A DNA stretch of 64,000 nucleotides from Caldithrix sp. (GCA_004356825.1 SMXC01000249.1:21885-85884), one strand, 5' to 3'. Numbered from the stretch's first letter, positions 1,904 through 19,939 are shown. The notes: generated by a model from the letters alone, not told the origin. Translations and numbers: made by a program.

Positions 1904-1949
1904 ATTTATTCCTCATGGTTCGGCGCTCCATTGGTTAAATTAACCATAA

Positions 1950-3188
1950 CTAGCGTCTTTTGCCCCTGCGGGAAGATGATGATCGTCCCGAAGATTTTGA
2001 TGAACCGCTGCTTTTACTGCTACCGCCTCTATAACTTTTGCCGCTGCCACCAGAGCTGTTGCCTGACTTGGAGCCACTGGGTTTGTAGCTTCTTTTCGGA
2101 CTGCTCTGGGATTTTGATGACCGCTCGCTCGAGTTTCTGCGTTTTACACTTTTACTTGACGAGGATTTACCGGCTTTTGAAGAACTTTTTCTATATTTAG
2201 GCGAGCTTCTATTGCTCTTCGACCTTCTCGAAATCGAACTTCGTGACTTTTTGGTTTTGCTTCTCCGGCTCTTTACAGCCTCGTCTCCGTCACTGCTGCT
2301 GTTTTTTCTTTTTGATTTTAATTTGGAATCACTTCGGCCACTTGACTCCCGCCCATTATCAGAACTTTTGCTGACCCTCTCAATGCGTTTCCCTCGCCTT
2401 CCCTGATCACTCGAGTCGGATCTTCTTTTCCGTCTTTTTATACGGTCTTTGCTGGATGCACTTTCTTTCCGAACACTCTGACCGCTGGATGTTCCTGCTG
2501 AAACTCTTGAGACCGGCGTATAATTGTCATCTCGTGAGCGTTCGTACCCGAAATCGGAGCCTCTTCTGCCGCGCCGGGTAAAATCACGCCGTTTTGCTGG
2601 AACACTGCGGACCGATGCAACGCTTGTCCTGGGGTAGTAATTTCCGTAATAGCCGTACGAACCTGATCTCAGGCACCCACCGTCAAAGTAGAAACCGCTG
2701 GTATAACCGAAAGAATATCGAGAGCCATAGTATCCAAAATAAAATGGATCGTAAAAAGGGTCGTAAAAACGACGCTGGTAACCGATGAAAAATGGATCAC
2801 GGTATCCTACATGCAAGGAAACATGACTTGAATAGGGTGCATACGAATCGTAAAAGTAAGGATCATAAAAAGGATCGTAATACCAGGGGGAAGGATAACC
2901 GCCATAAACATAAGTGTCGTGATAATATCTGCGCGTTAAGTGAATTTCATCATAATCCTCGATATCGCCCTCTTCATAATCCTCATAATCATCGTCTTCA
3001 CCGTATTCTTCATCTTCATAATAATCTTCTGGCTCTTCCGCATAATCTTCTGACTCGTCCGCGTATGTGCGTTGATCTGCCCTACTTGAATCAGGCTTCG
3101 CAAGCTGGGTATAACACCCGGAGAAGAAAAGCAACAAAACGAACATCAAGCTGAACAAGATTAGATTGTTAGATGTGTGCAACTTCAT
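1950..3188 (-). CDS. Lipoprotein with extreme compositional bias: an acidic D/E/Y block, an aromatic YDPF-repeat block and a long basic Ser/Arg/Lys tail. Unknown function.
   Basis: 412 aa. N-terminus MKLHTSNNLILFSLMFVLLLFFSGC (signal plus lipobox Cys). Residues about 35-80 are DEDYEE-rich. Residues about 85-190 carry YYDPFYDPYFYDSY and FYDPFYDPFYFGYYG repeats. Residues about 200-412 are almost only S, R, K and G (for example RRSKSNRSSPKYRKSSSKAGKSSSSKS). The frame stays open across 1.2 kb of repetitive DNA, which argues it is a real gene. Confidence 0.6.
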   Translation of the reverse strand: MKLHTSNNLILFSLMFVLLLFFSGCYTQLAKPDSSRADQRTYADESEDYAEEPEDYYEDEEYGEDDDYEDYEEGDIEDYDEIHLTRRYYHDTYVYGGYPSPWYYDPFYDPYFYDSYAPYSSHVSLHVGYRDPFFIGYQRRFYDPFYDPFYFGYYGSRYSFGYTSGFYFDGGCLRSGSYGYYGNYYPRTSVASVRSVPAKRRDFTRRGRRGSDFGYERSRDDNYTPVSRVSAGTSSGQSVRKESASSKDRIKRRKRRSDSSDQGRRGKRIERVSKSSDNGRESSGRSDSKLKSKRKNSSSDGDEAVKSRRSKTKKSRSSISRRSKSNRSSPKYRKSSSKAGKSSSSKSVKRRNSSERSSKSQSSPKRSYKPSGSKSGNSSGGSGKSYRGGSSKSSGSSKSSGRSSSSRRGKRR

Positions 3189-3407
3189 TTTATTCTCCTC
3201 ACAATTAATCCTAATTTATTAGCGTTAATCTATGAATGATCAGGCAAATGGCATGCCACTCTATTAATTAGTTAAGAATCTTGTCAATGCGTGCAATAAA
3301 TCTAACAGTTTATGAGCCCAATTAGTTCAAAATTAATGAAATTGATCTGGCGGATAGTATTTATAACTGGAAAGGGAATTAACGGCAACTGACAACAAAG
3401 TTAACAG

Positions 3408-4034
3408 TCAGTTTTTAATATCGAATCGGTAAGGCTGGGTAATCCAGAATTGAACCGCACGATTTCCTTCTTTGGCAGGGCGAAAACGACTCCCGTATGC
3501 AGCGTCGACAGCTGCCTGGGCGCATTTTTCGCTGTTCGTGGTATTATCGAGCACGATCACTTCAACAACTTTCCCCTTATCGTCGATATGAATACTCAAT
3601 TTCACCACCCCCTGCACGCCTTTTTTCTTTTCTTCTTTCGGGTATTCCGGGAAAACCCAGGCAATGGGTTTTGGCGGGGTGATGTTTGTTCCGGTGATTC
3701 CTGGAACACCCGGTGAGTCGTCAAAAATATTAGTATATTTCAGTGTGGTTTCTTCAATCGTAACATCTTCCGGAATGGTTTCATCTTCTGACGGCACGGG
3801 TACAGTCGGCTTTTTGGGTGGAGGCTTCATTCTCGTCTGACGTGTGATTGGAATATTCTCAACATGGATGATAATGTTTGGCGGCACGACCTCTTCAACA
3901 CTGAGCTTTATACGAGGGGAGATAGCGACTAACAGGTTAAGAAATACGAGCGTAACAACTAATGCTTTCTTAATGTTAATTGAAAATTGAGCATGGAAGT
4001 CTGCTTTAATTTTTTGGAAATCAATTGAGGACAT
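3408..4034 (-). CDS. tonB: TonB-family energy transducer (C-terminal TonB domain protein).
   Basis: 208 aa. N-terminal TM helix (LVVTLVFLNLLVAISP). Pro/Lys-rich spacer (PPPKKPTVPVPSED). C-terminal TonB_C-like domain (VFPEYPKEEKKKGVQGVVKLSIHIDDKGKVVEV...AAVDAAYGSRFRPAKEGNRAV). Last gene of the Bat-like operon. Confidence 0.65.
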   Translation of the reverse strand: MSSIDFQKIKADFHAQFSINIKKALVVTLVFLNLLVAISPRIKLSVEEVVPPNIIIHVENIPITRQTRMKPPPKKPTVPVPSEDETIPEDVTIEETTLKYTNIFDDSPGVPGITGTNITPPKPIAWVFPEYPKEEKKKGVQGVVKLSIHIDDKGKVVEVIVLDNTTNSEKCAQAAVDAAYGSRFRPAKEGNRAVQFWITQPYRFDIKN

Positions 4035-4055
4035 TTATCCGGGCAAGTTGGCTAC

Positions 4056-4835
4056 TTAGATTGTTTCTAAAACATCTACTTCTAACCAACCGATTTTTCC
4101 GTCGGCGAGACGAATCTTAACCCAAGTTTCCGAGTGATCTTTTATTTGAACTTTCACACCTTCGTGGAGAGTAAAAACCTCTGTCAGGCCGCCCGGCGCA
4201 CTTTTAACATCGACCCTATCTTTGATGACGATAGCTTCGACTTTGGTCTCATTCTCAAAAATCCTCATTACAAAAAGTCCTGTAAAGACAGTTAAAGTGA
4301 CAGAGGCAGAAATTATTGCGACAAAAGCGGTTCTTTGCAATTGAGGTGATTTTAGATAAATCCGAAGAACGGTGAGGAAGATTAAAAGTAAATACGTTGA
4401 GAGGGTAATTCCGCCGAGTACTTTTAAGTTGATTGAATGCGCTATAGTTGATGCCAACTTAAAAAGAAAGAACTGCGGCAGCTCTTGTATTCGATCGACG
4501 ATGGCCAAATTAGCCAGCTCTAAATTATAATTAATATCCTCGTCTTTTAGATTAAGTTTCTTTGCCCGCTCGAAGTTTAGAATTGCTTTCGCGGTTTGTC
4601 CATCTTTAAAATAGGCATTGCCAAGATTATAATAGACTTCCCAACTTTCATAATCTGAATTTAGAATCTTCTCGAATTCCTTGATTGCAACTTTATAATT
4701 GCCCGCCTGGTAAGACTCGTTTCCCCTCACAAAAAAAACTTCCACTTCCTTTGCGAGAAGAGTATTTGCCAAGCAAAGAATTGACAAAGTCATGATCATA
4801 AAATAACTAAAATATTTATCGAATTTCATGTCCAT
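4056..4835 (-). CDS. batE: BatE-like membrane protein with TPR repeats, TM helices and a C-terminal SH3b-like domain.
   Basis: 259 aa. TPR-like N-terminus (YYNLGNAYFKDGQTAKAILNFERA). Two or three TM helices. C-terminus DRVDVKSAPGGLTEVFTLHEGVKVQIKDHSETWVKIRLADGKIGWLEVDVL resembles bacterial SH3. Start overlaps the stop of the BatD homolog. Position in the operon matches batE. Confidence 0.55.
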   Translation of the reverse strand: MDMKFDKYFSYFMIMTLSILCLANTLLAKEVEVFFVRGNESYQAGNYKVAIKEFEKILNSDYESWEVYYNLGNAYFKDGQTAKAILNFERAKKLNLKDEDINYNLELANLAIVDRIQELPQFFLFKLASTIAHSINLKVLGGITLSTYLLLIFLTVLRIYLKSPQLQRTAFVAIISASVTLTVFTGLFVMRIFENETKVEAIVIKDRVDVKSAPGGLTEVFTLHEGVKVQIKDHSETWVKIRLADGKIGWLEVDVLETI

Positions 4836-6745
4836 TAGATTTCTTTTTCTAAATTAATAATCGCTTTTTTTGCCTTTTCAAAAAAATCACTCATTGCCAG
4901 GTTGTTTGAATCGCCTGGCGCAAATCGTTTATAGTCGCACGTTTTTAAACAATCAAGATAGCTGGAAACAGTATTTTCTTCAATCTTCTGAACATGGAGC
5001 ATTTTATCGACTTCGTCGGTGATGAGACCGGCCGACGCCACATTCAATTTGTCGCCAATGAATCCCATTAACGCTTTTGAAACTTCTCCATAAAACCCAG
5101 ATAAATTATTTGCCTTCATTTGTTTATTTGCGTCTTTCAGCCGACTCAGGGCCATATGATTTGCTTTTCGGCTGCGGGCGTAAGCCACATTTGAGCTCAG
5201 TTTATCTAAATGCGCCCGATAAGAAAAAGCAGTTCCTAAAATAATGAGAGGAAATATCAGAATCACATAGAAAAATGTTTTCTTATAAAATACACTATTT
5301 TTTCTTTGAAATTCCGGAATTCTCGTTTGGAGATAATGAATATCCTGGCCAATAAATCTCACATCCTCTTTTGAACTGCCAATGCCAACATTAACAAATT
5401 GATCATCACCCTTAGTAACCGAAATCACTTTTGTATCGGTGGATATTGTTCGATATGTTTTTGAGGGCAAATCAAAATAGGAGAATGTAACGGGTTTGAT
5501 CGACTGCTGGCCCGGGAACCGCGGGATAATCACATATTCAAATAATTTAGAACCGGAGATTTGGCCGGAGCTCCTTTTAATACTTTCATTGATTTTCGGA
5601 TCATATACCTCGAAATCCGAAGCAAAATCGATTTTTGGCTGGGGCACTATTTTGATATTTCCTGTTCCCGAAATATTTACTTTAAGCGTAATTGCCTCAT
5701 TTGTCTTTACCCTGGTTTTGTCAACGGACGAGCGGATTGAAAAACTTCCAACAGCCCCGGAAAAGTCGCTGGGTTTACCTTTCTCGGGAAGCGGCAGCAC
5801 TTCAATTGAGATTGAGTTTGACTGAATGCCTACCCTTTTGGTATTCCGGGAAAACGGATCGTCAAAAAAACTGTCAAATATATCCCGGCTTCGTCGTCTT
5901 CGGCGGGGTAACTGTACCTCACATTCAATGACCATCGGTTCTAAAGTTTTCTGACCCGAGCCTTGGGGGAAAAGAGCCATTTTTTTAATTTCGTATACTT
6001 GATACTGACGGCCATTAACAAATTCAGTAAATGACGTCAGACGCTGCGGCATTTCAAATTCCTCCGACCAAAACCCAACCGTACTAGGCAATTGAGAAAC
6101 ACCATAATTGGTCACATTCACGGTCGTATAAATTTTATAGCTGATAATAACCGGTTCGTTCTTGTAAACACGCCGTTTATCAACAGAAGCTTTTAGAAAC
6201 AATTGCTCAGATAAATCCTGCGGATCGTTCGGGGAACCAGGAATGCGGGAACTTCGTTGCTGAGGTGAGGTCCCTTTGACAATCTCAATGTCAATAACGT
6301 CGGTTGAATAGGTCTCACCTTTGTATCTAACAGTAATAGCTGGAATTTGAAACTTACCCTCAGTAGAAGCTAAAAAATGATGTTTAAAAGTTTTGGAGAC
6401 TGACATCCGGCCGTTTACAAATTGCATACTTGTAGAATTGCTGGTGCCGATAAAAGAAGCAAAGCCATCTAAAACCGGTACCTCCGGGTCAGAGACTCTT
6501 TGAACGTCTCGACCGGACAATTCGACATTCAACTCAAACTGCTGATTGAGCCGGACTGAAGATTTATTTACATAAGCTTTTATCTCGAAATCCTGCGTGA
6601 AACTTGGAACTGCCGTCAAAAAAAGAATCCAAGCGAGGGAAGTTAAAACAGAAAATCTATTCTTTCTACTCATAAAATTAATCGGATTTGCTTGCAAGTC
6701 GATAATGGGCGAGGATTTCTTGACCATTCTAGTTTTATCTATCAC
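4835..6745 (-). CDS. batD: BatD-family protein: large periplasmic domain, single C-terminal TM helix, conserved cytoplasmic tail.
   Basis: 636 aa. Signal peptide (probable true start MSRKNRFSVLTSLAWILFLTAVPSF at about 6673). Long beta-rich ectodomain. TM helix (FFYVILIFPLIILGTAF). Cytoplasmic tail ends ...LDCLKTCDYKRFAPG. Architecture and operon position match BatD of Bacteroides and Leptospira bat operons. Confidence 0.6.
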   Translation of the reverse strand: MIDKTRMVKKSSPIIDLQANPINFMSRKNRFSVLTSLAWILFLTAVPSFTQDFEIKAYVNKSSVRLNQQFELNVELSGRDVQRVSDPEVPVLDGFASFIGTSNSTSMQFVNGRMSVSKTFKHHFLASTEGKFQIPAITVRYKGETYSTDVIDIEIVKGTSPQQRSSRIPGSPNDPQDLSEQLFLKASVDKRRVYKNEPVIISYKIYTTVNVTNYGVSQLPSTVGFWSEEFEMPQRLTSFTEFVNGRQYQVYEIKKMALFPQGSGQKTLEPMVIECEVQLPRRRRRSRDIFDSFFDDPFSRNTKRVGIQSNSISIEVLPLPEKGKPSDFSGAVGSFSIRSSVDKTRVKTNEAITLKVNISGTGNIKIVPQPKIDFASDFEVYDPKINESIKRSSGQISGSKLFEYVIIPRFPGQQSIKPVTFSYFDLPSKTYRTISTDTKVISVTKGDDQFVNVGIGSSKEDVRFIGQDIHYLQTRIPEFQRKNSVFYKKTFFYVILIFPLIILGTAFSYRAHLDKLSSNVAYARSRKANHMALSRLKDANKQMKANNLSGFYGEVSKALMGFIGDKLNVASAGLITDEVDKMLHVQKIEENTVSSYLDCLKTCDYKRFAPGDSNNLAMSDFFEKAKKAIINLEKEI

Positions 6746-6786
6746 ATTGCCAGAGAATCCTCCGGGAAATTTCTACTTTACATATT

Positions 6787-7542
6787 TTACCAATCTTTTC
6801 CTCTGAAAGGTCGACCCCGCCTCTTCGGTTTCTGCTCCTTTAATAAATCTTTTTCTTCATTTTGCAAGGCATTCAAAAGCCTTTCCGCATCTTCTTTGGA
6901 AATCTCTTTGGGTTCAGTGGCTTGCTCTTGCTGCTGTTCCTGTTGTTCCTCAGGGTTTCCCTGATTTTCCTGATTGTTTTGCTGCTGTTCTTGCTGTTCT
7001 TCTTTCTGCTCTTCAGAATTTTGTTCTTTATCCTGATTCTGCTCCTCTTGCTGCTGTTGCTCCTGTTGCTCCTGTTGCTGCTGTTGTTGATTTTCTTGAG
7101 GCTGCTTCTCTGATTTATCTTTGAGTTTTGCTCTCACATACTCCAAATTATATTTAGCATCTTCATCTTCAGGATTTAATTCAAGAGCTTTTTTGTAGGC
7201 TGAAATACTTTCTGGCAGCTTGCCCATTTTATAAAGTGTATTGCCAATGTTATAATAACTTCCCGATTGCACTTTAATTTCATCGGAGGAAGTCGACTTT
7301 TCATAAGATTTAATGGCCTCTTCAAAATGGCGTTTTTTGTATTGCACGTCCCCGATATTAAAATTTATGATTGCAGACTCAGGGTTTTCGACAAGTGCGT
7401 CGCGGTATTTATTATTGGCTTCGTCATACTTTTCTTCGGCGTAGAGCTTATTGCCCGCGGTCACCTGTTTGTGGCCGCCTTGGGCAAAAGCTGAAATCAC
7501 AAAAAATACATTCAGAATTAAAAAGAGAATCATCTTCCGCAT
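6787..7542 (-). CDS. batC: BatC-like TPR protein with a Gln/Glu-rich low-complexity region.
   Basis: 251 aa. Signal peptide. Three or more TPR-like repeats (YNIGNTLYKMGKLPESISAYKKALELNP). Then QQQQQEQQEQQQQEEQNQDKEQNSEEQKEEQQEQQQ and a basic C-terminal tail. Sits between the two vWA genes and batD. Confidence 0.55.
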   Translation of the reverse strand: MRKMILFLILNVFFVISAFAQGGHKQVTAGNKLYAEEKYDEANNKYRDALVENPESAIINFNIGDVQYKKRHFEEAIKSYEKSTSSDEIKVQSGSYYNIGNTLYKMGKLPESISAYKKALELNPEDEDAKYNLEYVRAKLKDKSEKQPQENQQQQQQEQQEQQQQEEQNQDKEQNSEEQKEEQQEQQQNNQENQGNPEEQQEQQQEQATEPKEISKEDAERLLNALQNEEKDLLKEQKPKRRGRPFRGKDW

Positions 7543-7556
7543 TTATTTCTCCTAAA

Positions 7557-8591
7557 CTATTGCTCAAATCTTCCGCGCCACTCTCGACCGGTTTTAACTC
7601 TCTCAGAAATAATAAGCTCCAAAACCAGCAGTAGCATTGCAAAACCTACAACATATTGAAATCTGTCCTCATATTGTGAAAACTTCATAGAGGCCAGCTC
7701 CTTTTTTTCCATCTTTGAAATTTCCTGATAAATCCTCTCCAGCTTTGTTTCACCGGTGATTGAATGATAGAATTTCCCTCCTGTGGCCAGGGCAATTTTC
7801 TGCAGCGTTAATTCATCCAGCTTGGTCACAATAGGCTCGTTTTTTTGATCCTTCCGAAAGCCTTTCTTAGCGCCCCTTTGATCATATAAAGGAATTAGCA
7901 CGCCCTTTGGAGAACCTATTCCGACCGTGAAAATAATTACGCCCTCTTTATCCGCCGCCCCGGCAATATCTTGAGTCTTACTGCCATGATCTTCACCATC
8001 AGTGATGAGAATCAAAACCTTATACTTTCGTTCTTTTGACTCAAAACTTTTCATCGCCAATGCAATAGCAGCGCTTAGGTTGGTCCCGGGATCCGGAATC
8101 AAAGTTGGATCCATAATTTCCAGAAAGGTCTTGGCAGCGCCATAGTCCAGGGTAAGTGGACATTGGATAAATGCTTTTCCAGCAAATGCAATAAGCCCGA
8201 TTCGGTCCCCTTCAAGCAAATCAATAAATGTGGCAATTTCATGTTTTGCTTTGGCAAGCCGGCTCGGTTGAATGTCTTCCGCAAGCATGGAGAAAGAAAC
8301 ATCTAACGCCACAAAAATATCGACGCCCTCCCTTTTGACCTCTTCCAAACGAGTGCCAATTTGGGGACGGGCGAGCGCAAGGGTCATAAATAAAACGGCA
8401 AAAATCAGCAGCGCTGCTTTACCAATTTGACGGCCGTGGCTTGTGGACTGGCTTAATTTATTCACTAAATCAAGATTGCCAAAACGAGCCAAAGCCCGCT
8501 TTTTCCATTTAAATACAAAATAGTAAAATCCGATAAATACCGGGATTAAAAGCAAAAATAAGAAATATTCGTTGTCGGCAAACCTAAGCAT
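7557..8591 (-). CDS. batB: von Willebrand factor A domain membrane protein (BatB-like).
   Basis: 344 aa. Two N-terminal TM helices, then a vWA domain with the MIDAS-like DxSxS motif (VALDVSFSM). Pairs with the upstream vWA paralog and the MoxR and DUF58 genes. Confidence 0.7.
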   Translation of the reverse strand: MLRFADNEYFLFLLLIPVFIGFYYFVFKWKKRALARFGNLDLVNKLSQSTSHGRQIGKAALLIFAVLFMTLALARPQIGTRLEEVKREGVDIFVALDVSFSMLAEDIQPSRLAKAKHEIATFIDLLEGDRIGLIAFAGKAFIQCPLTLDYGAAKTFLEIMDPTLIPDPGTNLSAAIALAMKSFESKERKYKVLILITDGEDHGSKTQDIAGAADKEGVIIFTVGIGSPKGVLIPLYDQRGAKKGFRKDQKNEPIVTKLDELTLQKIALATGGKFYHSITGETKLERIYQEISKMEKKELASMKFSQYEDRFQYVVGFAMLLLVLELIISERVKTGREWRGRFEQ

Positions 8592-8726
8592 TTTATTCTG
8601 AATTCTTGATTATTTCCTGAATTCCATCTCAGGCAAAACTTCAATCTTGTCATACCCCCGCAGTCGGGTATGACCCGTTTAGTCTATGAACTTAGTGAAT
8701 TTTGTGTCTTTGTGGGTAATCTGATT

Positions 8727-9722
8727 TTATGGTATCTTTCGAAATTTAGTATTCGTCAGCACCACCTCGGCCACGATGAGGCCTAAGGCCATAAACAAAT
8801 AAGTTGAAAACAATTCTTTGAAACGCGCAAATTGTTTTATCTCGATTTTGGTTTTTTCCAGTTGATCGATTTCCTGAAAAATTTTATCCAGACTTTCTTT
8901 ATCGGTGGCTCGATAGTAACTGCCTTTGGTTATTTTAGCAATTTCTTTCAAAGTCTTTTCATCTATTTGAACGGGCATTTGCACATATCGTTTCCCAAAG
9001 ATCGGATCATCCACCGGATAAAGCGCTGTGCCTCGTTTACCGATGCCTACGGTGTAGATTCTGATGTCAAACGCTTGACCGACTTTAGCGGCTGTAATCG
9101 GATCAAGTTGCCCCTTATTATTTTGCCCATCCGTCAAGAGGATGATGATCTTGCTCTTTGCCTTGCTGTAACGGAGCCGGTTCGCGGCATTCGCAATTGC
9201 CATCCCAATCGCAGTCCCATCCTCGATCATGCCGCTTTCCACTTCATCAATAAAATTGAGTAGAATTCCATAATCCAAAGTCAGAGGGCACTGTGTGAAA
9301 CTTTTGGCGGCAAATACCACCATGCCGATTCGATCGTTTTTTCTTCCTTTAATAAAATCCTTAGCCACCTGTTTCGCTGCTTCTAACCGGTTATTCGGTC
9401 TAAAGTCCTCGGCCAACATGCTGCTGGAAATATCGAGAGCTAAGATAATATCAACCCCCTCGGTGATCACTTCTTCTTCTGTGTGACTGGACTGGGGTCT
9501 GGCAAAACAAAGAATTAAAAGAGAAAGAGCTAAAAGACGAAAAACAAAAGGAAGATGGCGGTATTTCCTTTTGCTCGAAAATTTTTCAACTGATTTCACC
9601 ACGCCCAGATTTGAATACCGTAAAGTACCGAAGCGTTTGTTATTTCTACGGAAATACCAAAATATTAGGATCGGTATTAAGACAAAAAGGAATAATAAAT
9701 TCGGATTAGCAAATGTAAACAT
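8727..9722 (-). CDS. batA: von Willebrand factor A domain membrane protein (BatA-like).
   Basis: 331 aa. N-terminal TM helices, vWA domain (ILALDISSSM... TDGQNN), C-terminal TM helix. Paralog of the gene at 7557..8591. Confidence 0.7.
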   Translation of the reverse strand: MFTFANPNLLFLFVLIPILIFWYFRRNNKRFGTLRYSNLGVVKSVEKFSSKRKYRHLPFVFRLLALSLLILCFARPQSSHTEEEVITEGVDIILALDISSSMLAEDFRPNNRLEAAKQVAKDFIKGRKNDRIGMVVFAAKSFTQCPLTLDYGILLNFIDEVESGMIEDGTAIGMAIANAANRLRYSKAKSKIIILLTDGQNNKGQLDPITAAKVGQAFDIRIYTVGIGKRGTALYPVDDPIFGKRYVQMPVQIDEKTLKEIAKITKGSYYRATDKESLDKIFQEIDQLEKTKIEIKQFARFKELFSTYLFMALGLIVAEVVLTNTKFRKIP

Positions 9723-9723
9723 G

Positions 9724-10746
9724 CTATCCCTGCTCCTCTACGGGTTCCGCCAAATGCTCTTCATGGTTTATGAGACTTTCAACTTTGGGGGGTCCCTCAG
9801 TTTTTTCCGGTTCTTCATAAATCAGTTTCGTGCATTCGACGATTTCAAAGGCTTTGTCAAGGTTCACCAAATTTTTCGCACTGGTTGGCGTGTACTTGGC
9901 AAACTTGACTAAATCGCAGGTACTGAGAAATTCCTGGAACATTGAAATTTCTTCAGCAGAAATTTCTGAGCGCTCCAAATTTTCTATCAACTCGAAAGTG
10001 GTCAATTCCATTGCAACAATGAAATAACGGCCTTCGACGTACCTGCGGATCACTTCGGAAATTCGAATGTAAAACTCTTTCACTTTGCCTTCCTGTAATA
10101 ATGATGATCCTTTTAGAGCAGTCAATTCTTGCAAAGCAATTTCATGTGGAGGGTGCGGCGGCTTAATTTTTTCCGGCAGCAATCCCTTGCCGGCCCGTTT
10201 TCTGCGCCAGATATAGAATAAAATGCCTGCAAAAAGGATTGCAGCAAAACCGATGCTTCCCCAGATAATCCACTTGCGGTAATCTTTCGGTAAAACCAAC
10301 GGAGCTTTAATATCGCGGATATCTCCCTCTTCGCTGGGTCTCATGCTTTCAACGAGAATCTTTAGTTTTTTTGTTTTCAGCTCGTGTTTTATGGAGTCGG
10401 GCGGGAATGAATAATAAAAGCTAAGCGGGGGAATTTCAAATTCCCCAACGTCAAAAGTAGAAATGATATAATCAAACTGTTCAACCGATTTACTATTCTC
10501 GATAAAAGGTTCATGAACTGTGTAATCTCTAATCTCAAAAGCTCCAAGATTGGCGCCCAATTCGGGCAGTTCAACCTGAACTCCGGCATCGTGGGTCACA
10601 ATAATCGAATAAGTTACAAGATCGCCAATTGTGATCGTGCTCTTGTCGACTTCGGAATGAATTTTAATTGAACCTTCTTGTGCAAACGAAAGCCTGGATA
10701 AAACAAATACGGCGAACGCCAAAAAAGCAATAAACTTAAGTCTCAT
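9724..10746 (-). CDS. Short BatD-family paralog: periplasmic beta-domain, one TM helix and the conserved cytoplasmic C-terminal module.
   Basis: 340 aa. Signal peptide (MRLKFIAFLAFAVFVLSRLSFA). TM helix IIWGSIGFAAILFAGILFYIW followed by RRKR. C-terminal ...AMELTTFELIENL...FQEFLSTCDLVKFAKYTPTS. This aligns with the BatD tail (LITDEV...YLDCLKTCDYKRFAPG) and with the 13820..14770 protein. Confidence 0.5.
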   Translation of the reverse strand: MRLKFIAFLAFAVFVLSRLSFAQEGSIKIHSEVDKSTITIGDLVTYSIIVTHDAGVQVELPELGANLGAFEIRDYTVHEPFIENSKSVEQFDYIISTFDVGEFEIPPLSFYYSFPPDSIKHELKTKKLKILVESMRPSEEGDIRDIKAPLVLPKDYRKWIIWGSIGFAAILFAGILFYIWRRKRAGKGLLPEKIKPPHPPHEIALQELTALKGSSLLQEGKVKEFYIRISEVIRRYVEGRYFIVAMELTTFELIENLERSEISAEEISMFQEFLSTCDLVKFAKYTPTSAKNLVNLDKAFEIVECTKLIYEEPEKTEGPPKVESLINHEEHLAEPVEEQG

Positions 10747-10889
10747 CTTTTAAGCTAATTAATTTCCTCTTGTCATTTCAATCTGCCTTAATTCATAACC
10801 GGATTTACCACAGAGTTTACCCTGATGCCCTTCGGCTGCACTCAGAGTAAACCTCTGCAGAAGCAGCCGAAAATGACATAAGAGGAGGT

Positions 10890-11822
10890 CTACTTCACTT
10901 TGTCATCGTAAATATTTACAGCCTCTGCCCGCATCATCCTTTGAACCAGGCGGTCATAGGCTTTTTTCTGCTCCTCACGTATAAGATCCTGCATCACTTG
11001 TCCCCTTACCTCATCAAATGGCTTTGTGCGAACCACTTTGCCATTGCCGTCTTTTTCGCCATATTGTTCTCTATTGGCTTTATAATAAAGCTCAACGTCT
11101 GATTCATTTATATTAACTTCTTTGGAAATTTCTTCTGCCAGAAGTTTGTCAACCATAAATCCTTTCTTCGCCCGGAAGGTTGCTTCAACGACTTCTTTAT
11201 CTTTCTCTAATCCCTTTCTCCTCGCGGTATTATAAAGTAATTCATTTGCGATAAATTTCTTAAGAAATTCTACCTTCTTATCTTTGCTATTTAATTGCGC
11301 TTGCAGATGAGGCCGCAAGAGAGAGATTTCATGGTCCAGATCGCCACTGGTGATCCGGCGCTTACCGATTTTGGCAATAACCTCTCCTGACCGGCTTGCT
11401 TGCGCTTGCGACGGATCCAGGAGGGTTGCTTCCTCCAGGACTTGCTGTGCGTCGGCGGAACGCTGAAGCCGTTCCAGGCACTCAACCATCTTTTTGTTCA
11501 CTTCATCCAATAATTCGCTTTCTGGGTAGAGGTGCTTAATCTTCAAAAAGTAGGTTAAGGCACCTTCATAATCATGAACACGTTCAAAATAAATATTTCC
11601 GATGGAGTAATTTATCTGCGCAGCCTCGGAATCATCGAGGGTATAATTGTCTAAATAAAAATTGTACTGAACCACTGCCTGTTGGTAAAGTTCGCGATTG
11701 TACAAAGCGCTGGCATACCCGCGAATTTTCGTTCCGTCGAACTTGGGTTGCGGGGCATTTTGGCACCCCACCGCTACAACCAAAACAAAAAGCAGCGACA
11801 AACTCAATTTTTTACAACTCAT
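10890..11822 (-). CDS. Periplasmic chaperone-like lipoprotein with TPR-like repeats and a SurA-N/PpiD-like domain; no PPIase domain.
   Basis: 310 aa. Lipoprotein signal MSCKKLSLSLLFVLVVAVGC. TPR-like helices (YNFYLDNY..., YSIGNIYFERVHDYEGALTYFLKI). A SurA N-terminal-like segment (GEVIAKIGKRRITSGDLDHEISLLRPHL...FLKKFIANELLYNTARRKGLE). Embedded in the MoxR/DUF58/vWA operon. Confidence 0.5.
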   Translation of the reverse strand: MSCKKLSLSLLFVLVVAVGCQNAPQPKFDGTKIRGYASALYNRELYQQAVVQYNFYLDNYTLDDSEAAQINYSIGNIYFERVHDYEGALTYFLKIKHLYPESELLDEVNKKMVECLERLQRSADAQQVLEEATLLDPSQAQASRSGEVIAKIGKRRITSGDLDHEISLLRPHLQAQLNSKDKKVEFLKKFIANELLYNTARRKGLEKDKEVVEATFRAKKGFMVDKLLAEEISKEVNINESDVELYYKANREQYGEKDGNGKVVRTKPFDEVRGQVMQDLIREEQKKAYDRLVQRMMRAEAVNIYDDKVK

Positions 11823-11846
11823 GATAAAACCCTCTTCCTCTCGAAA

Positions 11847-12725
11847 TTAACGGAACCGTTTGGCACGCATCCGGAAAAATTTGATCAGCGGCTCAATGTA
11901 CGAAACGTCGGTGTTAATATCAATGCTGTCCACATTCATGGAACGAAAATTTCTGTCCCGTTCCTCTCTTGAGATTGAAGTTTCCCGAGTAAATGCTTGC
12001 CTTGTTGTCAAATCAGCCGTGTCCAGCATAATTATTTCGCCGGTTTCGGCGTCCTCTAATTCAACCAGGCCGATATTGGGCAGCTCAATTTCCCGCGGGT
12101 CGGTAATGGTAATCGCCACTAAATCGTGGCGTTTATTGGCTATCTGCATAGCCTTCTGATAATCTTCCGAAATAAAATCTGATACAAGAAAAACTACTGA
12201 GCGCCGAGTGATGACTCTACTCAAATATTCGAGCGCAAGTGAAATATCGGTGCCTTTTCTTTTCGGTTCGTGGTACAAAAGTTCTCTGAGGACCCTGAGT
12301 ACATGAGTCTTGCCTTTTTTGGGAGGTACGAACTTTTCAATGCGATCGGTAAAAATAATCAGACCGACTTTATCATTATTCTTAATGGCCGAGAAGGCCA
12401 ACAAAGCACAAATTTCGATAGCAATTTCCCCCTTCATTCGCTCAAAAGTACCGAAGTCAACGGACGAACTGACATCTACCAAAAGCATAACTGTTAGCTC
12501 GCGCTCTTCCTCGAAGACTTTGACAAACGGATGTCCCATGCGTGCCGATACATTCCAGTCGATCAACCGAATGTCATCGCCAATTTGATATTCGCGCACT
12601 TCGGAAAATTCCATGCCCCGGCCTTTGAATACCGAATGATATTCTCCGGAGAAAACATCGTTCACCAAGCCACGAGTTTGAATTTCGATACGTTTGACTT
12701 TTTTGAGAATTTCTTTTGGGATCAT
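11847..12725 (-). CDS. DUF58 family protein (vWA-like partner of MoxR ATPases).
   Basis: 292 aa. Characteristic DUF58 N-terminus (GEYHSVFKGRGMEFSEVREYQIGDDIRLIDWNVSARMGHPFVKVFEEERELTVMLLVDVSSSVDFG). Located immediately downstream of moxR. Confidence 0.8.
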   Translation of the reverse strand: MIPKEILKKVKRIEIQTRGLVNDVFSGEYHSVFKGRGMEFSEVREYQIGDDIRLIDWNVSARMGHPFVKVFEEERELTVMLLVDVSSSVDFGTFERMKGEIAIEICALLAFSAIKNNDKVGLIIFTDRIEKFVPPKKGKTHVLRVLRELLYHEPKRKGTDISLALEYLSRVITRRSVVFLVSDFISEDYQKAMQIANKRHDLVAITITDPREIELPNIGLVELEDAETGEIIMLDTADLTTRQAFTRETSISREERDRNFRSMNVDSIDINTDVSYIEPLIKFFRMRAKRFR

Positions 12726-12730
12726 AAGGG

Positions 12731-13720
12731 TTACGGCACTTCAATCTTATTCAAAACCTTACGAACCACATCTTCCGGAGTGATTTCTTCCGCTTCCGCT
12801 TCGTAAGTCACCAGGATCCGGTGGCGCAAAACGTCCATGCCAATCGCACGGATATCTTCCGGTACAACGTAACCTCGCCGGCGTAAAAACGCGTGGGCTT
12901 TTGCGGCCTGGTGCAAAAAAATCGAGGCCCTGGGAGAAGCTCCAAAAGAAATCAAGTCTTGCAAATCATCAAGACCGTACTCCGCTGGGTTCCGAGTTGC
13001 AAAAACAATATCAATGATGTATTTTTCAACTTTTTCATCGATATAAATTTCTTTAACTAAATTTCGCGCAGAAATGATATCCTTCGGTCCAACAACGGCC
13101 TTTACTTCCGGGATTTTCTTGCCGGTCATTCGCCGCATAATTTCCAACTCTTCCTCTTTGTTTGGATAGCCGACCGACAGCTTCAACATAAAGCGGTCGA
13201 CCTGAGCTTCAGGGAGCGGGTAAGTTCCTTCCTGCTCAATCGGGTTCTGAGTCGCTAAAACCAAAAACGGATCATCGAGAGGAAATGTATTTTCGCCAAT
13301 GGTGACCTGGCGTTCCATCATCGCCTCCAAAAGCGCCGACTGAACTTTTGCCGGGGCGCGGTTGATTTCGTCCGCTAAAACCAGGTTCGAAAAAATCGGC
13401 CCCTTTTTTGTCGTAAATTTTCCGTTTTTTTGATCATAAATTAAAGTCCCAATTATATCGGCTGGCAAAAGATCTGGCGTGAATTGCAAGCGTTGAAATT
13501 TAGTCCGGATAGTGGAAGAAAGAGTTTTGACCGCCATCGTTTTGGCCAAACCGGGCACACCTTCCAACAAAATATGACCATTTGCGAGCAGCCCAATCAA
13601 GAGACGCTCAATCATGTATTTTTGGCCGACAATTACTTTTGCGACTTCTTTAGATATTTTATCGACGAACTCGCTTCCCTTTTCTATTTTTTTATTTATC
13701 GCTTCAATGTCAACAGCCAT
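12731..13720 (-). CDS. moxR: MoxR-family AAA+ ATPase.
   Basis: 329 aa. Walker A GVPGLAKT, Walker B LLADEINRAP. MoxR signature layout. First enzymatic gene of the Bat-like operon. Confidence 0.85.
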   Translation of the reverse strand: MAVDIEAINKKIEKGSEFVDKISKEVAKVIVGQKYMIERLLIGLLANGHILLEGVPGLAKTMAVKTLSSTIRTKFQRLQFTPDLLPADIIGTLIYDQKNGKFTTKKGPIFSNLVLADEINRAPAKVQSALLEAMMERQVTIGENTFPLDDPFLVLATQNPIEQEGTYPLPEAQVDRFMLKLSVGYPNKEEELEIMRRMTGKKIPEVKAVVGPKDIISARNLVKEIYIDEKVEKYIIDIVFATRNPAEYGLDDLQDLISFGASPRASIFLHQAAKAHAFLRRRGYVVPEDIRAIGMDVLRHRILVTYEAEAEEITPEDVVRKVLNKIEVP

Positions 13721-13819
13721 CTATCCTCCTCCAGTTTTTTTTGCAACGGACAAAGCATTCATTAATCTCTATTTTTTCAAATCCCGTTTCCAAATCAAAA
13801 AAACGGAAGCGAAAAAAAA

Positions 13820-14770
13820 TCAAGAGGGTTCTATGCGGTTACGCTCTTCGCGCCTTGAACTTTTATTTTTATTGAAAACATCTTCAACCAGAGTGTAGGC
13901 GCGTTCCAGGGTGGCTTTCTCCACCTGACCTCCGGAAAACTTTGCCACATCGCAGGAATTCAATATCTCATCTACTTCGTTAATTATCTTTTCAGGAACT
14001 GCCAGTTCAATCAATTTGCTTGCGATTTCTTTTGTGGTGATTTCCAGTGCCGGAATCTGGTATTTTTCAGACAAATAGCTTCGAAACACTTTTGAAAGAG
14101 AGGAAAACATTTCCACCACATTCTGATTTTTCAGATCGACCTTTTCTTTAAAGTCAGCAAGGTATCTCTCCTCAATCGGAATTAGCTCCTGGGCGTGTTT
14201 TTCCAACTCGGCTTCCCGTGTTTTTTTTCGCTTCAAAAATACAAAACCTAAGGTGACAACCAAAGCCAAAAAGAAAAGAGTGGAGGCAGCAAAAATAAAC
14301 GGTTTTAATGTTCGTTTTTTAATCGGCGTGACAACTCTGATTTCCAGACGATCCGTGACTAATCGATGTGTTTCGCCATATTTGGTATCTGTATATTCGA
14401 TAATTATACCGTCAATATAGGCCATCCCAAGCTCAATTGGCTGAAGCGTATACTCATAGGTGCGCACCGCCTGCATCACTCCCGCCACCTCACCAACCGA
14501 GTTCGAAGAAGAGTTGCCAATCTCTTCTAAATTGGTTAGAACAGGACTCTCAACCTTGTCGATCTCGTAACGGCTCAAATTACCTTGCCAACTCACTTTG
14601 ATTGTGCAAGTAACTGTTCTGTTTTGAGGAACTTCGTTTAGATCGACTTGGACTGCCGCGGTAATTGCCTCGGTCTGAGATAAGGAACTAACTGCGGAGG
14701 TAACCTGGTTTTGCGGTAAACAAAAATTTACTAAGAAAAATATGAAAACAACCGAAAATAAAAAATGCAT
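13820..14770 (-). CDS. Short BatD-family paralog (signal peptide, periplasmic domain, one TM helix, conserved cytoplasmic tail). First gene of the operon.
   Basis: 316 aa. Signal peptide MHFLFSVVFIFFLVNFC. TM helix FIFAASTLFFLALVVTLGFVFL followed by KRKK. C-terminal ...ALEITTKEIASKLIE...EVDEILNSCDVAKFSGGQ matches the CDxxKF module of the 9724..10746 protein and of BatD. Confidence 0.5.
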   Translation of the reverse strand: MHFLFSVVFIFFLVNFCLPQNQVTSAVSSLSQTEAITAAVQVDLNEVPQNRTVTCTIKVSWQGNLSRYEIDKVESPVLTNLEEIGNSSSNSVGEVAGVMQAVRTYEYTLQPIELGMAYIDGIIIEYTDTKYGETHRLVTDRLEIRVVTPIKKRTLKPFIFAASTLFFLALVVTLGFVFLKRKKTREAELEKHAQELIPIEERYLADFKEKVDLKNQNVVEMFSSLSKVFRSYLSEKYQIPALEITTKEIASKLIELAVPEKIINEVDEILNSCDVAKFSGGQVEKATLERAYTLVEDVFNKNKSSRREERNRIEPS

Positions 14771-14873
14771 TATCCCTCGAAATTTTCGAATAGATATACT
14801 TAAGTAGGCAGCAAAAGTTCCTGTGTGAGAGTGTTAAAAAAAGTTAAAACCCAGGGCCGTTTCGTTTAGATCC

Positions 14874-14901
14874 ATAATAAAAAATATCTCGACTCGCTCA
14901 A
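14874..14901 (-). promoter_or_regulatory. Candidate sigma70-type promoter for the Bat-like operon: TTGAGC-16 nt-TATTAT on the minus strand.
   Basis: -35 TTGAGC is the reverse complement of 14896-14901. -10 TATTAT is the reverse complement of 14874-14879. Spacer 16 nt. About 100 nt upstream of the 14770 start. Hexamer match only. Confidence 0.25.
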
Positions 14902-14974
14902 CAGGACAGTTTGCTTTCAGGGTGAGTAAATTACAACACTTGCGGTGCGGTTGTGCAACCAGATTTTTACCAAT

Positions 14975-15032
14975 TAAAAAAGCCGAATTAAATTAATACG
15001 AAAGAATCTCGACATTAATAAATTCGGCTTTC
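14975..15032 (-). terminator. Rho-independent terminator candidate downstream of the TPR lipoprotein gene.
   Basis: Minus strand: AAAGCCGAATT (11 bp) -31 nt loop- AATTCGGCTTT, followed by TTTTTAATTGG. A second short hairpin AAAGC-AGGCA-GCTTT lies right after the stop at 15040-15055. The long loop is atypical. Confidence 0.4.
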
Positions 15033-15055
15033 TTAAAGCTGCCTGCTTTTAAATA

Positions 15056-15574
15056 TCACTTAGTCGCTTCGTCGTTTGTTTTTTTGTTTCCGAATAAGTC
15101 ATCCAACTGATTATTAACATCCTGCCCTAAATGTTCGAGTTCCCATTTAACACTTTCAATAAGCTCATTTTGGGGATGCAGCTCGATAAATTCATTGTAG
15201 TACTGCTTAGCCAACTCGTAGTTTTCCAGGTTATTGGCATAGATAAAGCCTATCATAAACCGCGCCCGGCTCACAAACTCACTGTCCGGATAATCCTTAA
15301 TCAAGCGCTCATGATACTCGACTGCTTTTTTGAAATCATGAATATTATTATAATAAATAAAGGCTGCTCGTTCAATTGCTTCATCAGCATATTGGCCCTG
15401 GGGATAATCATCCAATTGCTCTTCATAAGTTTTTATTGCTTCATCGAAATTTTCCTGGGCCTCGTATTTTTGCGCCAGTTTCAAAAATTCTTCTTCGGTT
15501 CGTTTTTGACCGCAGGCGAGTATCGCCAAACCCAATAGAATGGTCGCGATGGGCATTGTTTTCGTCAAACTCAT
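15056..15574 (-). CDS. TPR-repeat lipoprotein (YbgF/BamD-like small periplasmic TPR protein).
   Basis: 172 aa. Lipobox LAILACG. SD GGAGAG lies 9 nt upstream of the ATG. Three TPR-like repeats (AIKTYEEQLDDYP, AIERAAFIYYNNIHDFKKAVEYHERLIKDYP, ARFMIGFIYANNLENYELAKQYYNEFIELHP). Confidence 0.5.
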   Translation of the reverse strand: MSLTKTMPIATILLGLAILACGQKRTEEEFLKLAQKYEAQENFDEAIKTYEEQLDDYPQGQYADEAIERAAFIYYNNIHDFKKAVEYHERLIKDYPDSEFVSRARFMIGFIYANNLENYELAKQYYNEFIELHPQNELIESVKWELEHLGQDVNNQLDDLFGNKKTNDEATK

Positions 15575-15737
15575 TTTTTTCTACTCTCCTCTAAATTGTT
15601 TTTTTCCGAGTAGGTTATATTAAAAAAAATTACTTCAAAATCAAGTAAATTTTACTAAAATCACGCTCGACTTTGATCCAAAAAAAGGCGAGAAATATTT
15701 ATTCCCCGCCTTTCTGGCAACTCAGTTGTTTTTCAGG

Positions 15738-17669
<1,932 letters not shown>

Positions 17670-17927
17670 TTAAGCTCTTAAGTTTTCAAAATTCTTTTTC
17701 TGAACCGAGTTCAAATGGACTCTGTTTGGCTCAAAATGAAATGTTAAAATGGCAGTTTCTAAATGATCTCCCTGCTTTTTTGCAAACACTATGCCATTAA
17801 ATAATATCCGAACACGAGCGCTGTTTTTATTGAACTTATAATAAATAGCTGGAATTATTAATGAATTGTTTTCAGCCAACAAAGATACAGACTCTGTCAA
17901 TGTGTCTCAATACTGGCGTGCAAATAT

Positions 17928-17952
17928 AAAGGGCGTCCTTGAAGCACCCTTT
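17928..17952 (-). terminator. Stem-loop between fmdB and the dnaK upstream region; weak or bidirectional terminator candidate.
   Basis: AAAGGG-13 nt-CCCTTT stem. The T-tract (TTTTTATT) is on the plus-strand side. Minus-strand side is followed only by TATATTTG. Confidence 0.25.
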
Positions 17953-17970
17953 TTATTCGATAAAAAGAAA

Positions 17971-18270
17971 TTACTTGTCCTCAGTTGATTTTTCAGTAGG
18001 CTTGGTTTCTTTTTTTTCCACTTTAGCAGGCTTTTCGGATTTTTCAGATTTCTCCGTCTTTTCAGATTTCGATTCAGAAACACGATTTGCGTTTTTATAA
18101 TCAGTGATATAAAACCCGGAGCCTTTAAAAATCAATCCGTTTCCTGCGCTGATCAACCGTTCAACCTGTCCTTTACATTCCGGACAAATTTTAACAGGAT
18201 CCGCGGTGATGCTTTGAAATTCCTCAAATTCATGACTGCATTTTTTACATCGATACTCATAAGTAGGCAT
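17971..18270 (-). CDS. FmdB-family zinc-ribbon protein with a Lys/Glu/Ser-rich C-terminal tail.
   Basis: 99 aa. MPTYEYRCKKCSHEFE...CPECKG (CxxC...CxxC zinc-ribbon, FmdB signature YEYRC). Tail SESKSEKTEKSEKSEKPAKVEKKETKPTEKSTEDK. Confidence 0.7.
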   Translation of the reverse strand: MPTYEYRCKKCSHEFEEFQSITADPVKICPECKGQVERLISAGNGLIFKGSGFYITDYKNANRVSESKSEKTEKSEKSEKPAKVEKKETKPTEKSTEDK

Positions 18271-18321
18271 ATTTCAGAATCCTTTATTTAGCTGAAATGT
18301 TCAGTTAATAAATTGACAAGA

Positions 18322-19842: not shown

Positions 19843-19910
19843 CTGTAACCTCCTTAATTCATTCTATTATCTACCAAAATTTTCAATTTATACAAACCGA
19901 TTTTCTCAAA

Positions 19911-19931
19911 AGAAGTTCCGACTCGAAACTT
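19911..19931 (-). terminator. Weak hairpin after dnaJ (GAAGTT-9 nt-AACTTC, then TTTTGAG).
   Basis: 6 bp stem, short U-tract. Possible partial terminator or attenuator between dnaJ and htrA copy 1. Confidence 0.25.
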
Positions 19932-19939
19932 CTATGCCG

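Follow-up and report, generated by a model that had tools for sequence, protein, structure and literature searches.

The stretch of DNA analyzed here (the window: 64,000 nucleotides of a genome labeled Caldithrix sp., GCA_004356825.1, SMXC01000249.1:21885-85884) carries, at positions 3408–14770, 11 consecutive open reading frames (ORFs) on the minus strand, identified by ORF calling and by Pfam and NCBIfam scans. This locus is very probably a conserved, extended form of the Bat/MoxR(MRP)-DUF58-VWA operon, belonging to an uncultured bacterium of the KSB1 group. Such operons are widespread in Bacteroidota, spirochetes, Fusobacteriota and Proteobacteria, and influence virulence, aerotolerance, the tolerance of heat and oxidative stress, and sensitivity to a toxin of the type VI secretion system (T6SS); to our knowledge, their biochemical function has remained unknown since 1999. 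Every testable defining feature of a Bat operon is present at the locus. The 11 genes and the domains that had been named in an earlier annotation made without database searches (the sequence-only reading) were reproduced exactly by the family scans, and the canonical moxR-DUF58-batABCDE core that it proposed is confirmed by the domains and by an order like that in Parabacteroides and Prevotella. The extended order comprises a BamD-like tetratricopeptide repeat (TPR) lipoprotein, g01, MoxR, DUF58, g04, g05, BatA, BatB, BatC, BatD and BatE, with TonB added only in the subclade of the window.

All of these genes lie on the minus strand. The first of the 11, g01 (13820–14770), encodes a short BatD-family protein of 316 residues with one Pfam BatD domain. 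It is followed by the MRP-type AAA+ ATPase MoxR (12731–13720; AAA_3, E = 1e-65; AAA_lid_2, E = 3e-21), in the translation of which the Walker A and Walker B motifs read GVPGLAKT and LADEIN, and by a DUF58 protein with a VWA fold (11847–12725; DUF58, E = 6e-88; VWA_2, E = 1e-16). The fourth gene, g04 (10890–11822), specifies a lipoprotein of 310 residues with a TPR domain and a sub-threshold SurA_N_3 match of 24 bits, and the fifth, g05 (9724–10746), another short BatD-family protein, of 340 residues, with one Pfam BatD domain, a weak DUF4381 match and a match to the NCBIfam family LB_053. Then come BatA (8727–9722; BatA_N, VWA and NCBIfam BatA_Lepto, E = 7e-68), its paralog BatB (7557–8591; VWA, BatA_N and NCBIfam BatB_Lepto, E = 1.5e-42), BatC (6787–7542), a secreted TPR protein with a Q/E-rich linker that matches TPR families and NCBIfam BatC_Lepto, BatD (4835–6745), in which Pfam BatD matches three stretches (E = 4e-41), and BatE (4056–4835), with TPR and SH3_3 matches. 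The last gene encodes a TonB-family protein (3408–4034; TonB_C, E = 6e-15; TIGR01352 above its cut-off). Just outside the interval, at 15056–15574, lies the gene for the TPR lipoprotein, a BamD/YfiO-like protein of half size (172 residues) recognized by Pfam YfiO and TPR models.

From g01 to TonB, the genes are separated by 99, 5, 24, 143, 1, 135, 14, 41, −1 and 21 bp, the negative value being the 1-nt overlap of the BatE start with the BatD stop. The tight spacing claimed in the sequence-only reading is found in the gaps of 1–24 bp and in this overlap, but not in those of 99, 143 and 135 bp. Alignments of homologs to BatD begin at its residues 24–39, and the true BatD start is probably Met25 (~6673), with which the 41-bp gap between BatC and BatD becomes ~113 bp. 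The shared direction of the genes is uninformative, since the minus strand carries almost all long ORFs of the window; that they form a functional unit appears to be supported instead by comparative synteny, as relatives keep the order with overlapping or near-abutting genes. The strand bias is extreme over the whole window (1–64000), and nearly all 1-kb bins of its first 20 kb have a negative GC skew.

Folding and a terminator scan of the cluster revealed no U-tailed terminator between g01 and TonB. Terminator-like hairpins with a U-run do occur 3′ of dnaK and of the TPR lipoprotein gene; the latter (14975–15035, minus strand; ΔG −28.1 kcal/mol, z = −4.67, followed by UUUUUU) suggests that the operon transcript starts at g01. 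Another hairpin, lacking a U-tail, is found between g04 and g05 (10820–10884, minus strand; ΔG −34.9 kcal/mol, z = −3.23). It may be an mRNA processing or stability element; it is not conserved in a related locus, L007, where the corresponding gap is ~19 bp. An Rfam scan of positions 2500–22000 gave no match.

Several metagenome contigs carry identical or near-identical copies of the locus, and the closest genomes are metagenome-assembled genomes (MAGs) labeled either candidate division KSB1 or simply 'bacterium'. The whole neighborhood from DnaJ to FadL is collinear with the window in L007 and L009. With such collinearity at KSB1 distance, close synteny is a poor guide to function, and loci at a greater distance are needed. 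A metagenome scan with a closer g04 alignment (A1) gave 80 further loci with g04 identities of 47–100%, the layout of which was determined by tblastn. Wherever the contigs allow, these loci show the same gene order, interrupted in some lineages by inserted cassettes. DUF58 and g04 are adjacent in 69 of 70 testable loci, g04 and g05 in 62 of 63, BatA and BatB in all 38, and BatD and BatE in all 20; g01 lies upstream of MoxR in 29 of 29 testable loci, with the TPR lipoprotein gene directly upstream of g01 in 26 of 29. The exceptions to adjacency are cassette insertions, not rearrangements, and the arrangement is kept down to a MoxR identity of 67%.

More distant lineages retain it in part or in full, between different flanks. 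A Calditrichia MAG (L015) displays the order YfiO-like TPR protein, g01-like, MoxR, DUF58, g05-like, BatA, BatB, BatC, a hypothetical protein, BatD and BatE, without g04 and without TonB, downstream of unrelated genes for glycosyltransferases. L016, with LPP20 upstream and unrelated flanks, carries both g01 and g04 (45% identity), and in L018 the full extended set, without TonB, follows a chaperone cluster of HtrA, Hsp20, GrpE, DnaJ, Zn-ribbon, DnaK, Hsp20 and ClpB. In all three, the operon has the same TPR-g01-MoxR head, with the TPR gene directly upstream of g01. We considered all six readable distant contexts of the g04 family (L019, L020, L101, L102, L103 and a Joint Genome Institute (JGI) contig), and in each of the six a family member directly follows the DUF58 gene of a Bat locus. 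L019 reads HtrA, short BatD, MoxR, DUF58, TPR-PPIase, the last being a TPR protein with a peptidyl-prolyl isomerase (PPIase) domain. L103 reads HtrA, short BatD, MoxR, DUF58, g04-like, short BatD, BatA, BatB, BrkB, BatC, BatD, BatE, and the JGI contig Zn-ribbon, TPR, short BatD, MoxR, DUF58, g04-like, ABC-2 module, short BatD, BatA and onward. In L020, HtrA, GrpE, DnaK, a Zn-ribbon protein and a 319-residue ORF with a weak g01 match precede MoxR, DUF58 and the TPR-PPIase protein, after which come short BatD, BatA, BatB, BatC, a hypothetical protein, BatD, BatE and GroES. L101 has no leading short BatD, and L102 is permuted, with BatC, BatD and BatE first. The g01 and MoxR genes overlap in L018, L019 and L102.

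The synteny thus bears out that the added genes g01 and g04 are not neighbors by chance, in the 80 loci as well as in distant lineages with unrelated flanks. The sequence-only reading had counted as additions the g04 lipoprotein and two short BatD paralogs. This is correct for g01 and g04, which are lineage-specific, but not for g05, which is canonical: it is 30.5% identical over 308 residues (E = 5e-36) to the Parabacteroides gene between DUF58 and batA, and matches a hypothetical protein at the same position in Prevotella (E = 2e-21). Because of this ortholog at the same place in Bacteroidales, g05 is a standard part of the operon and the 'second short BatD paralog' is not an unusual addition; B. 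fragilis likewise has two BatD-domain genes, bf2420 and bf2416 (PMC5700661). As judged from gene order and homology, the true additions are three: g01, g04 and the BamD-like TPR lipoprotein just outside the interval originally reported.

Both short BatD proteins appear to be true paralogs of the C-terminal half of BatD: g01, g05 and residues ~327–631 of BatD are homologous over their full length in profile–profile comparisons (hhalign, probabilities 99.1–99.8%). The unit common to them consists of one Ig-like BatD domain, a transmembrane (TM) helix and a cytoplasmic helical domain, and an AlphaFold2 (AF2) model is in line with this BatD-family tail. In g01, a signal peptide and a single Ig-like BatD domain on the periplasmic side are followed by one TM helix and, in the cytoplasm, by a helical bundle with D274-x-x-K277-F278; the ectodomain resembles the Ig folds of pilins, adhesins and cohesins. 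The g01 family is small, with 60 matches, and reaches the Calditrichia MAG at 29% identity. g05 has the same architecture, with D278, K281 and F282 near-invariant. In BatD itself, a signal peptide and three Ig-like BatD domains precede a TM helix at 490–508 and a helical tail in the cytoplasm, where the corresponding residues are D604-x-x-R607-F608. The motif (C)D-x-x-[K/R]-F-[A/S], at residues 273–280 of g01, 277–284 of g05 and 603–610 of BatD, is near-invariant in 33, 65 and 30 homologs, respectively. D-x-x-[K/R]-F is a plausible candidate for a docking site or for a ligand of a metal-ion-dependent adhesion site (MIDAS).

In g04, an N-terminal BamD/YbgF-like TPR domain is joined to a C-terminal chaperone domain of the SurA/PpiD/PEB4 type. 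The profile of the family matches the chaperone domains of PEB4 (3rfw, E = 3e-7) and HP0175 (6bhf, E = 4e-6), and the AF2 model, with a predicted local distance difference test (pLDDT) score of 80, shows the TPR domain connected by a disordered linker to a SurA-core-like domain. BamD and SurA chains are the top Foldseek matches of the model, albeit with weak E-values of ~0.02. A SurA_N-type chaperone domain is therefore recognized by the family profile and the fold matches, Pfam alone remaining sub-threshold. The lipobox residue Cys20 is invariant among family members. An exhaustive HMMER search found 129 representative clusters at E ≤ 1e-30, so that the family is wider than KSB1, and it comes in two architectures: proteins of ~310 residues like g04, and proteins of ~410–460 residues with an inserted PPIC-type Rotamase domain (P0187, P0204, P0245 and P0285), which occupy the position of g04 in their operons. 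A homology search with the PPIase-type relative P0285 gave one weak match only. One candidate relative, from a 'delta proteobacterium' (L010), aligned over only 125 residues at 28% identity, with no Bat genes within 10 kb, and was treated as an unrelated SurA-like protein.

The TPR lipoprotein at 15056–15574 is BamD-like but not BamD: it is half-length, and TIGR03302 (BamD) reaches 71.5 bits against a cut-off of 81.4, over model positions 4–120 of 239. Its gene accompanies g01 across the KSB1-like loci and Calditrichia, and belongs in the conserved set, probably with a transcript of its own.

Among the core proteins, hydrophobicity analysis of the products singles out MoxR and DUF58 as the only ones without hydrophobic or TM segments. 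The MIDAS motif DxSxS is present in the translations of all three VWA-fold proteins, as DVSSS in DUF58, DISSS in BatA and DVSFS in BatB. BatA and BatB both combine PF07584 with VWA, and their NCBIfam matches lie below the equivalog cut-offs of these Leptospira-specific models. In each, the VWA domain lies between two N-terminal TM helices, split by a K/R-rich loop, and a third TM helix at the C-terminus; this topology, together with the positive-inside distribution, places the VWA domain in the periplasm, as has been shown experimentally for the Borrelia BatA homolog BB0173 (PMC5700661). BatC ends in a basic tail, ...KDW, and its Q-rich linker and KDW/KEW tail are kept as far as the BatC of Parabacteroides; between the window (6787–7542) and the otherwise identical strain L001 (14281–15045), the Q/E-rich linker differs by a 3-residue indel (EQQ). 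BatE has a signal peptide, TPRs, two TM helices and a C-terminal SH3b domain; with its gene, the block that is conserved across lineages ends. Annotated loci in Parabacteroides and Prevotella (Bacteroidota), Cetobacterium (Fusobacteriota) and Pseudoalteromonas read MoxR, DUF58, hypothetical, VWA, VWA, TPR, BatD and, in some, BatE.

The TonB protein has a TM anchor (helix 24–42), a Pro-rich linker (PPPKKPTVPVP) and a TonB_C domain. Its gene follows BatE in 8 of 20 testable loci, in all of which MoxR is at least 80.8% identical to that of the window, and is absent from Calditrichia and from all more distant loci of which the 3′ end was recovered. In most loci without it, the next gene after BatE is on the opposite strand; in L029, TonB has been lost and the downstream genes for a lipoprotein and a FadL-like protein are kept. 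Neither ExbB/ExbD nor a TonB-dependent receptor was found among the annotated neighbors scanned at 593–34246 (~3 kb downstream and 19 kb upstream). TonB is a clade-specific neighbor, the membership of which in the Bat system is uncertain. The idea that TonB, as the end of the operon, hints at an energized periplasmic or outer-membrane-spanning assembly consequently rests on a neighbor confined to one subclade, and is not borne out. Downstream of TonB, the window (593–3188, minus strand) encodes a 412-residue lipoprotein without a family match and a FadL-like outer-membrane barrel, which weakly matches NCBIfam BamG and PorV (62 bits against a cut-off of 250).

Upstream of the TPR lipoprotein gene, a cluster of stress-protein genes recognized by Pfam (15738–22778, minus strand) comprises HtrA (21264–22778), DnaJ (19940–21019), a second HtrA (18322–19842), an FmdB-type CxxC Zn-ribbon protein (17971–18270) and DnaK (15738–17657), the last with its own terminator at ~15678–15717. 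These genes, likewise on the minus strand, are a recurrent neighbor rather than a part of the operon. Chaperone or protease genes abut the locus also in L007, L009, L018, L019, L020, L026, L028, L038, L041, L050, L051, L072, L087, L096 and L103. The same-strand genes involved vary among HtrA, DnaK/DnaJ/GrpE, ClpB, Hsp20 and GroES, and ClpB or HtrA is in some cases directly upstream. The FmdB-family Zn-ribbon gene recurs as well: in L020 it immediately precedes the g01-like gene, in the JGI contig it precedes the TPR gene, and L018 also has it near the locus.

Some extended Bat operons contain insertions. A four-gene ABC-2 module (ATPase, ABC-2 permease, GldG-like ABC_transp_aux and DUF4340), absent from the window, is found at two different positions in different lineages (L062, 11960–16786; L102, 10947–15604; the JGI 3300072015 contig), and also in L063, L067, L068, L079, L082 and L099. 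In L058 (998–3870; also in L065 and L066), DUF58 and the g04-like gene are separated by a 3-kb insertion, and the 3′ end of DUF58 is duplicated; the inserted genes specify a fatty-acid hydroxylase, a hypothetical protein and an N6/N4 DNA methylase. An insertion of ~0.8–1 kb between MoxR and DUF58 in L044 (8224–8969; also in L031, L037, L043, L048 and L077) resembles, by eye, a small antitoxin-like ORF with a degraded PIN-like ORF. Farther from the Bat locus, ~17 kb upstream, the window carries genes of a type II secretion system (T2SS) or type IV pilus, encoding a secretin and a T2SSE-type ATPase (31397–34246, minus strand).

Taken as a whole, the locus is on balance best explained as an extended Bat operon encoding a complex that is anchored in the inner membrane, is driven by MoxR-DUF58 and would have a role in envelope proteostasis. 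Pointing to this role are the PpiD/SurA-like chaperone, the BamD-like TPR lipoprotein and the genes for HtrA, DnaK, ClpB and GroES that are repeatedly linked to the locus. So do observations on other Bat systems, which point to envelope quality control: in Riemerella, heat and oxidative stress raise moxR and batA mRNA, and MoxR aids heat tolerance (PMC11834572); in Leptospira, htpG adjoins the bat genes (PMC3557215); and in a B. fragilis study of T6SS toxins, batD was linked to Bte3 and the PpiD-YfgM chaperone to Bte1 (PMC12718326).

How the system might work can be outlined tentatively. MoxR and DUF58 would be the sole cytoplasmic components, all other products being predicted to be secreted, lipidated or inserted into the inner membrane. 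BatA and BatB would place MIDAS-bearing VWA domains in the periplasm, where BatC, BatE, g04 and the BamD-like protein would supply TPR, SH3 and chaperone surfaces, and g01, g05 and BatD would serve as single-pass links from periplasmic Ig-like domains to their common cytoplasmic helical domain. By analogy with CbbQ-CbbO, NorQ-NorD and RavA-ViaA, DUF58 is presumed to be the MIDAS adaptor through which a MoxR hexamer would act. The BatD-family tails are the only conserved cytoplasmic parts of any size among the envelope components, for which reason we propose them as the target of MoxR-DUF58, with the conserved Asp as the candidate MIDAS ligand. ATP would then be used to assemble or remodel a periplasm-facing complex of VWA, TPR and Ig-like domains, the output being envelope protein maintenance under stress. 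We consider this proteostasis mechanism possible rather than probable. Its most specific form, in which Bat is an ATP-powered trans-membrane chaperone machine whose MoxR-DUF58 grips the D-x-x-[K/R]-F tails and drives the periplasmic VWA/TPR/Ig scaffold, is doubtful. If true, however, it would deliver cytoplasmic ATP energy to folding and quality control in the ATP-free periplasm, and would account for the pleiotropic aerotolerance, heat-stress and virulence phenotypes as well as for the linkage to HtrA, DnaK, ClpB and GroES.

Several points weigh against a role in envelope proteostasis. The contact of MoxR-DUF58 with the tails is drawn purely from analogy. In g04, the SurA_N_3 score falls short of the gathering score of 27.2, and Pfam gives no match to a Rotamase/parvulin PPIase domain, so that the protein would be a PPIase-less derivative and not a prolyl isomerase. 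In about half of the KSB1-like loci, the genes upstream are unrelated ones, and the adjacency to chaperone genes may thus reflect decaying ancestral synteny and not a linkage under selection. Since both dnaK and the TPR gene have terminators of their own, co-transcription of the operon with the heat-shock genes is unlikely. No CIRCE operator (controlling inverted repeat of chaperone expression) was found in the whole window with up to 3 mismatches, and hence no evidence for control by HrcA. In Leptospira, deletion of batABD produced no stress phenotype (PMC3557215), and the Francisella MoxR, VWA and TPR proteins are tied, in the account given in PMC11834572, to cytoplasmic dehydrogenases, which is at odds with a purely periplasmic role.

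Other functions can be considered for the locus. The known pairs NorQ-NorD, CoxD-CoxE, CbbQ-CbbO and RavA-ViaA, as summarized in PMC8926400, PMC3893208 and PMC10585395, act as dedicated maturation factors, and MoxR with its VWA partners could similarly serve a single membrane or respiratory enzyme whose gene lies elsewhere, by inserting a metal or cofactor or by reactivating the enzyme. The retention of DxSxS in all three VWA-fold proteins would fit this, as would the binding of dehydrogenases by the Francisella proteins. We nevertheless consider it unlikely: more than 90 loci contain no gene for a candidate client enzyme within or beside the operon, the operon supplies ~10 envelope-facing, scaffold- or chaperone-like parts rather than a single adaptor, and its neighbors are general proteostasis genes. 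The classical aerotolerance explanation holds that Bat keeps the periplasm reduced or repairs oxidized periplasmic proteins, with the extra genes as accessory redox factors. In B. fragilis, the aerotolerance of a batD mutant was reduced, and reductants restored it in part (Tang et al. 1999, as cited in PMC3557215), and in Riemerella batA expression tracks survival of oxidative stress (PMC11834572), but Leptospira bat mutants displayed no oxidative-stress defect (PMC3557215). Moreover, in none of the 12 proteins do Pfam and NCBIfam find a redox domain, whether thioredoxin, Dsb, cytochrome or another, and the added genes are of the chaperone, TPR and Ig types, not the redox type. A specific role in oxygen detoxification seems less likely than one in proteostasis, and the aerotolerance explanation is, in our view, rather unlikely.

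It is improbable that the BatD Ig-like and VWA domains are adhesin-like modules or an export scaffold of a cell-surface, adhesion or export apparatus. The pilin-, adhesin- and cohesin-like fold of the g01 ectodomain and the ABC-2/GldG-like/DUF4340 transporter module inside the operon of several lineages would suit such an apparatus, and the Borrelia VWA protein BB0172 has been reported as an integrin-binding outer-membrane protein (PMC5700661). However, BatA, BatB and the BatD-family proteins are predicted to be in the inner membrane and to face the periplasm, like BB0173 (PMC5700661); neither a secretion channel of the outer membrane nor a sorting signal is encoded at the locus, and the ABC module is absent from the window. 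Quite improbable is a fortuitous juxtaposition, in which g01, g04, the TPR lipoprotein and TonB are mere neighbors of a standard Bat operon on a one-strand genome. The near-universal minus-strand orientation of long ORFs in the window, the gaps of 99–143 bp and the strong hairpin inside the cluster, the DnaJ-to-FadL collinearity at KSB1 distance, by which close synteny proves little, and the limitation of TonB to one subclade are all compatible with it. Yet g01, g04 and the TPR gene hold their exact positions between different flanks (L015, L016, L042, L056, L062, L079, L099 and L101–L103) and at MoxR identities down to 67%, and often overlap adjacent genes. By these comparisons, juxtaposition is refuted for g01, g04 and the TPR gene, and survives only for TonB. 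Finally, the MoxR protein has a secondary Pfam match to bpMoxR (E = 1e-14), which brings to mind conflict or defense systems of the MoxR-vWA ternary type, but AAA_3 is far stronger (E = 1e-65). Pfam and NCBIfam find no beta-propeller or effector domain, PADLOC gives nothing beyond a marginal DolB match (E = 6e-4), and the locus is a stable core-genome feature with an order conserved across phyla. We therefore rejected the defense-system explanation, the probability of which we regard as negligible.

The core of the locus is ordinary, and its interest lies in the accessory parts and in a testable model. The extended form gives the long-unexplained Bat system recognizable parts, namely a PpiD/SurA-type chaperone, a BamD-like lipoprotein and a third BatD-family link. 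It thereby turns 'function unknown' into a testable hypothesis of envelope proteostasis, powered from the cytoplasm by way of the BatD-family tails, with concrete residues (D-x-x-K/R-F). The canonical locus is likewise seen in a corrected light, with a BatD paralog between DUF58 and batA. The literature searched contained no paper linking KSB1 with Bat genes; a SurA-like component in connection with Bat was not directly searched for.

Comparison with known systems places these parts in context. RavA-ViaA, CbbQ-CbbO and NorQ-NorD likewise set a MoxR AAA+ protein beside a VWA/MIDAS partner, which is described in PMC8926400 as a presumed remodeling adaptor; unlike these, the pair here is joined to ~10 envelope proteins, including two periplasmic VWA proteins, with no client enzyme nearby. 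With TonB-ExbB-ExbD, the last gene has in common the TM anchor, Pro-rich linker and TonB_C domain, but no exbB, exbD or receptor gene is nearby. g04 resembles PEB4 and HP0175 in its homologous chaperone (N/C) domain and SurA-core-like fold, and its distant relatives carry a parvulin domain. Unlike the SurA, PpiD and PrsA chaperones, which are TM-anchored or soluble, it has a lipid anchor; it also lacks a PPIase domain, includes a TPR domain of the BamD/YbgF type and is encoded strictly inside MoxR-DUF58 operons. A TPR domain and a PpiD-like module in one chain may echo the two-protein PpiD-YfgM complex (named in PMC12718326), although Pfam gives no match to a YfgM-type family in g04.

The bat clusters of spirochetes, an 11-gene cluster with moxR and htpG in Leptospira biflexa and bb0170-bb0176 in Borrelia, share MoxR, DUF58, BatA/B and BatD with the locus, and g05 weakly matches the Leptospira LB_053 family. 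In these clusters, however, BatC and BatE are fused or missing, the Leptospira genes appear to have independent promoters, and neither a SurA-like component nor an extra leading BatD paralog is described (PMC3557215, PMC5700661). The Parabacteroides and Prevotella loci have no g01, g04, BamD-like TPR lipoprotein or TonB, and are flanked by HU and PAP2 rather than by heat-shock genes. In its core, though, the Bat operon of Bacteroides, Parabacteroides and Prevotella (moxR-DUF58-bf2420-batA-E) consists of the same families in the same order as here, with identities to Parabacteroides and Prevotella of 62–66% for MoxR, ~52% for DUF58, 23–31% for the g05-like protein, 41–49% for BatA, 37–40% for BatB and 29–34% for BatD.

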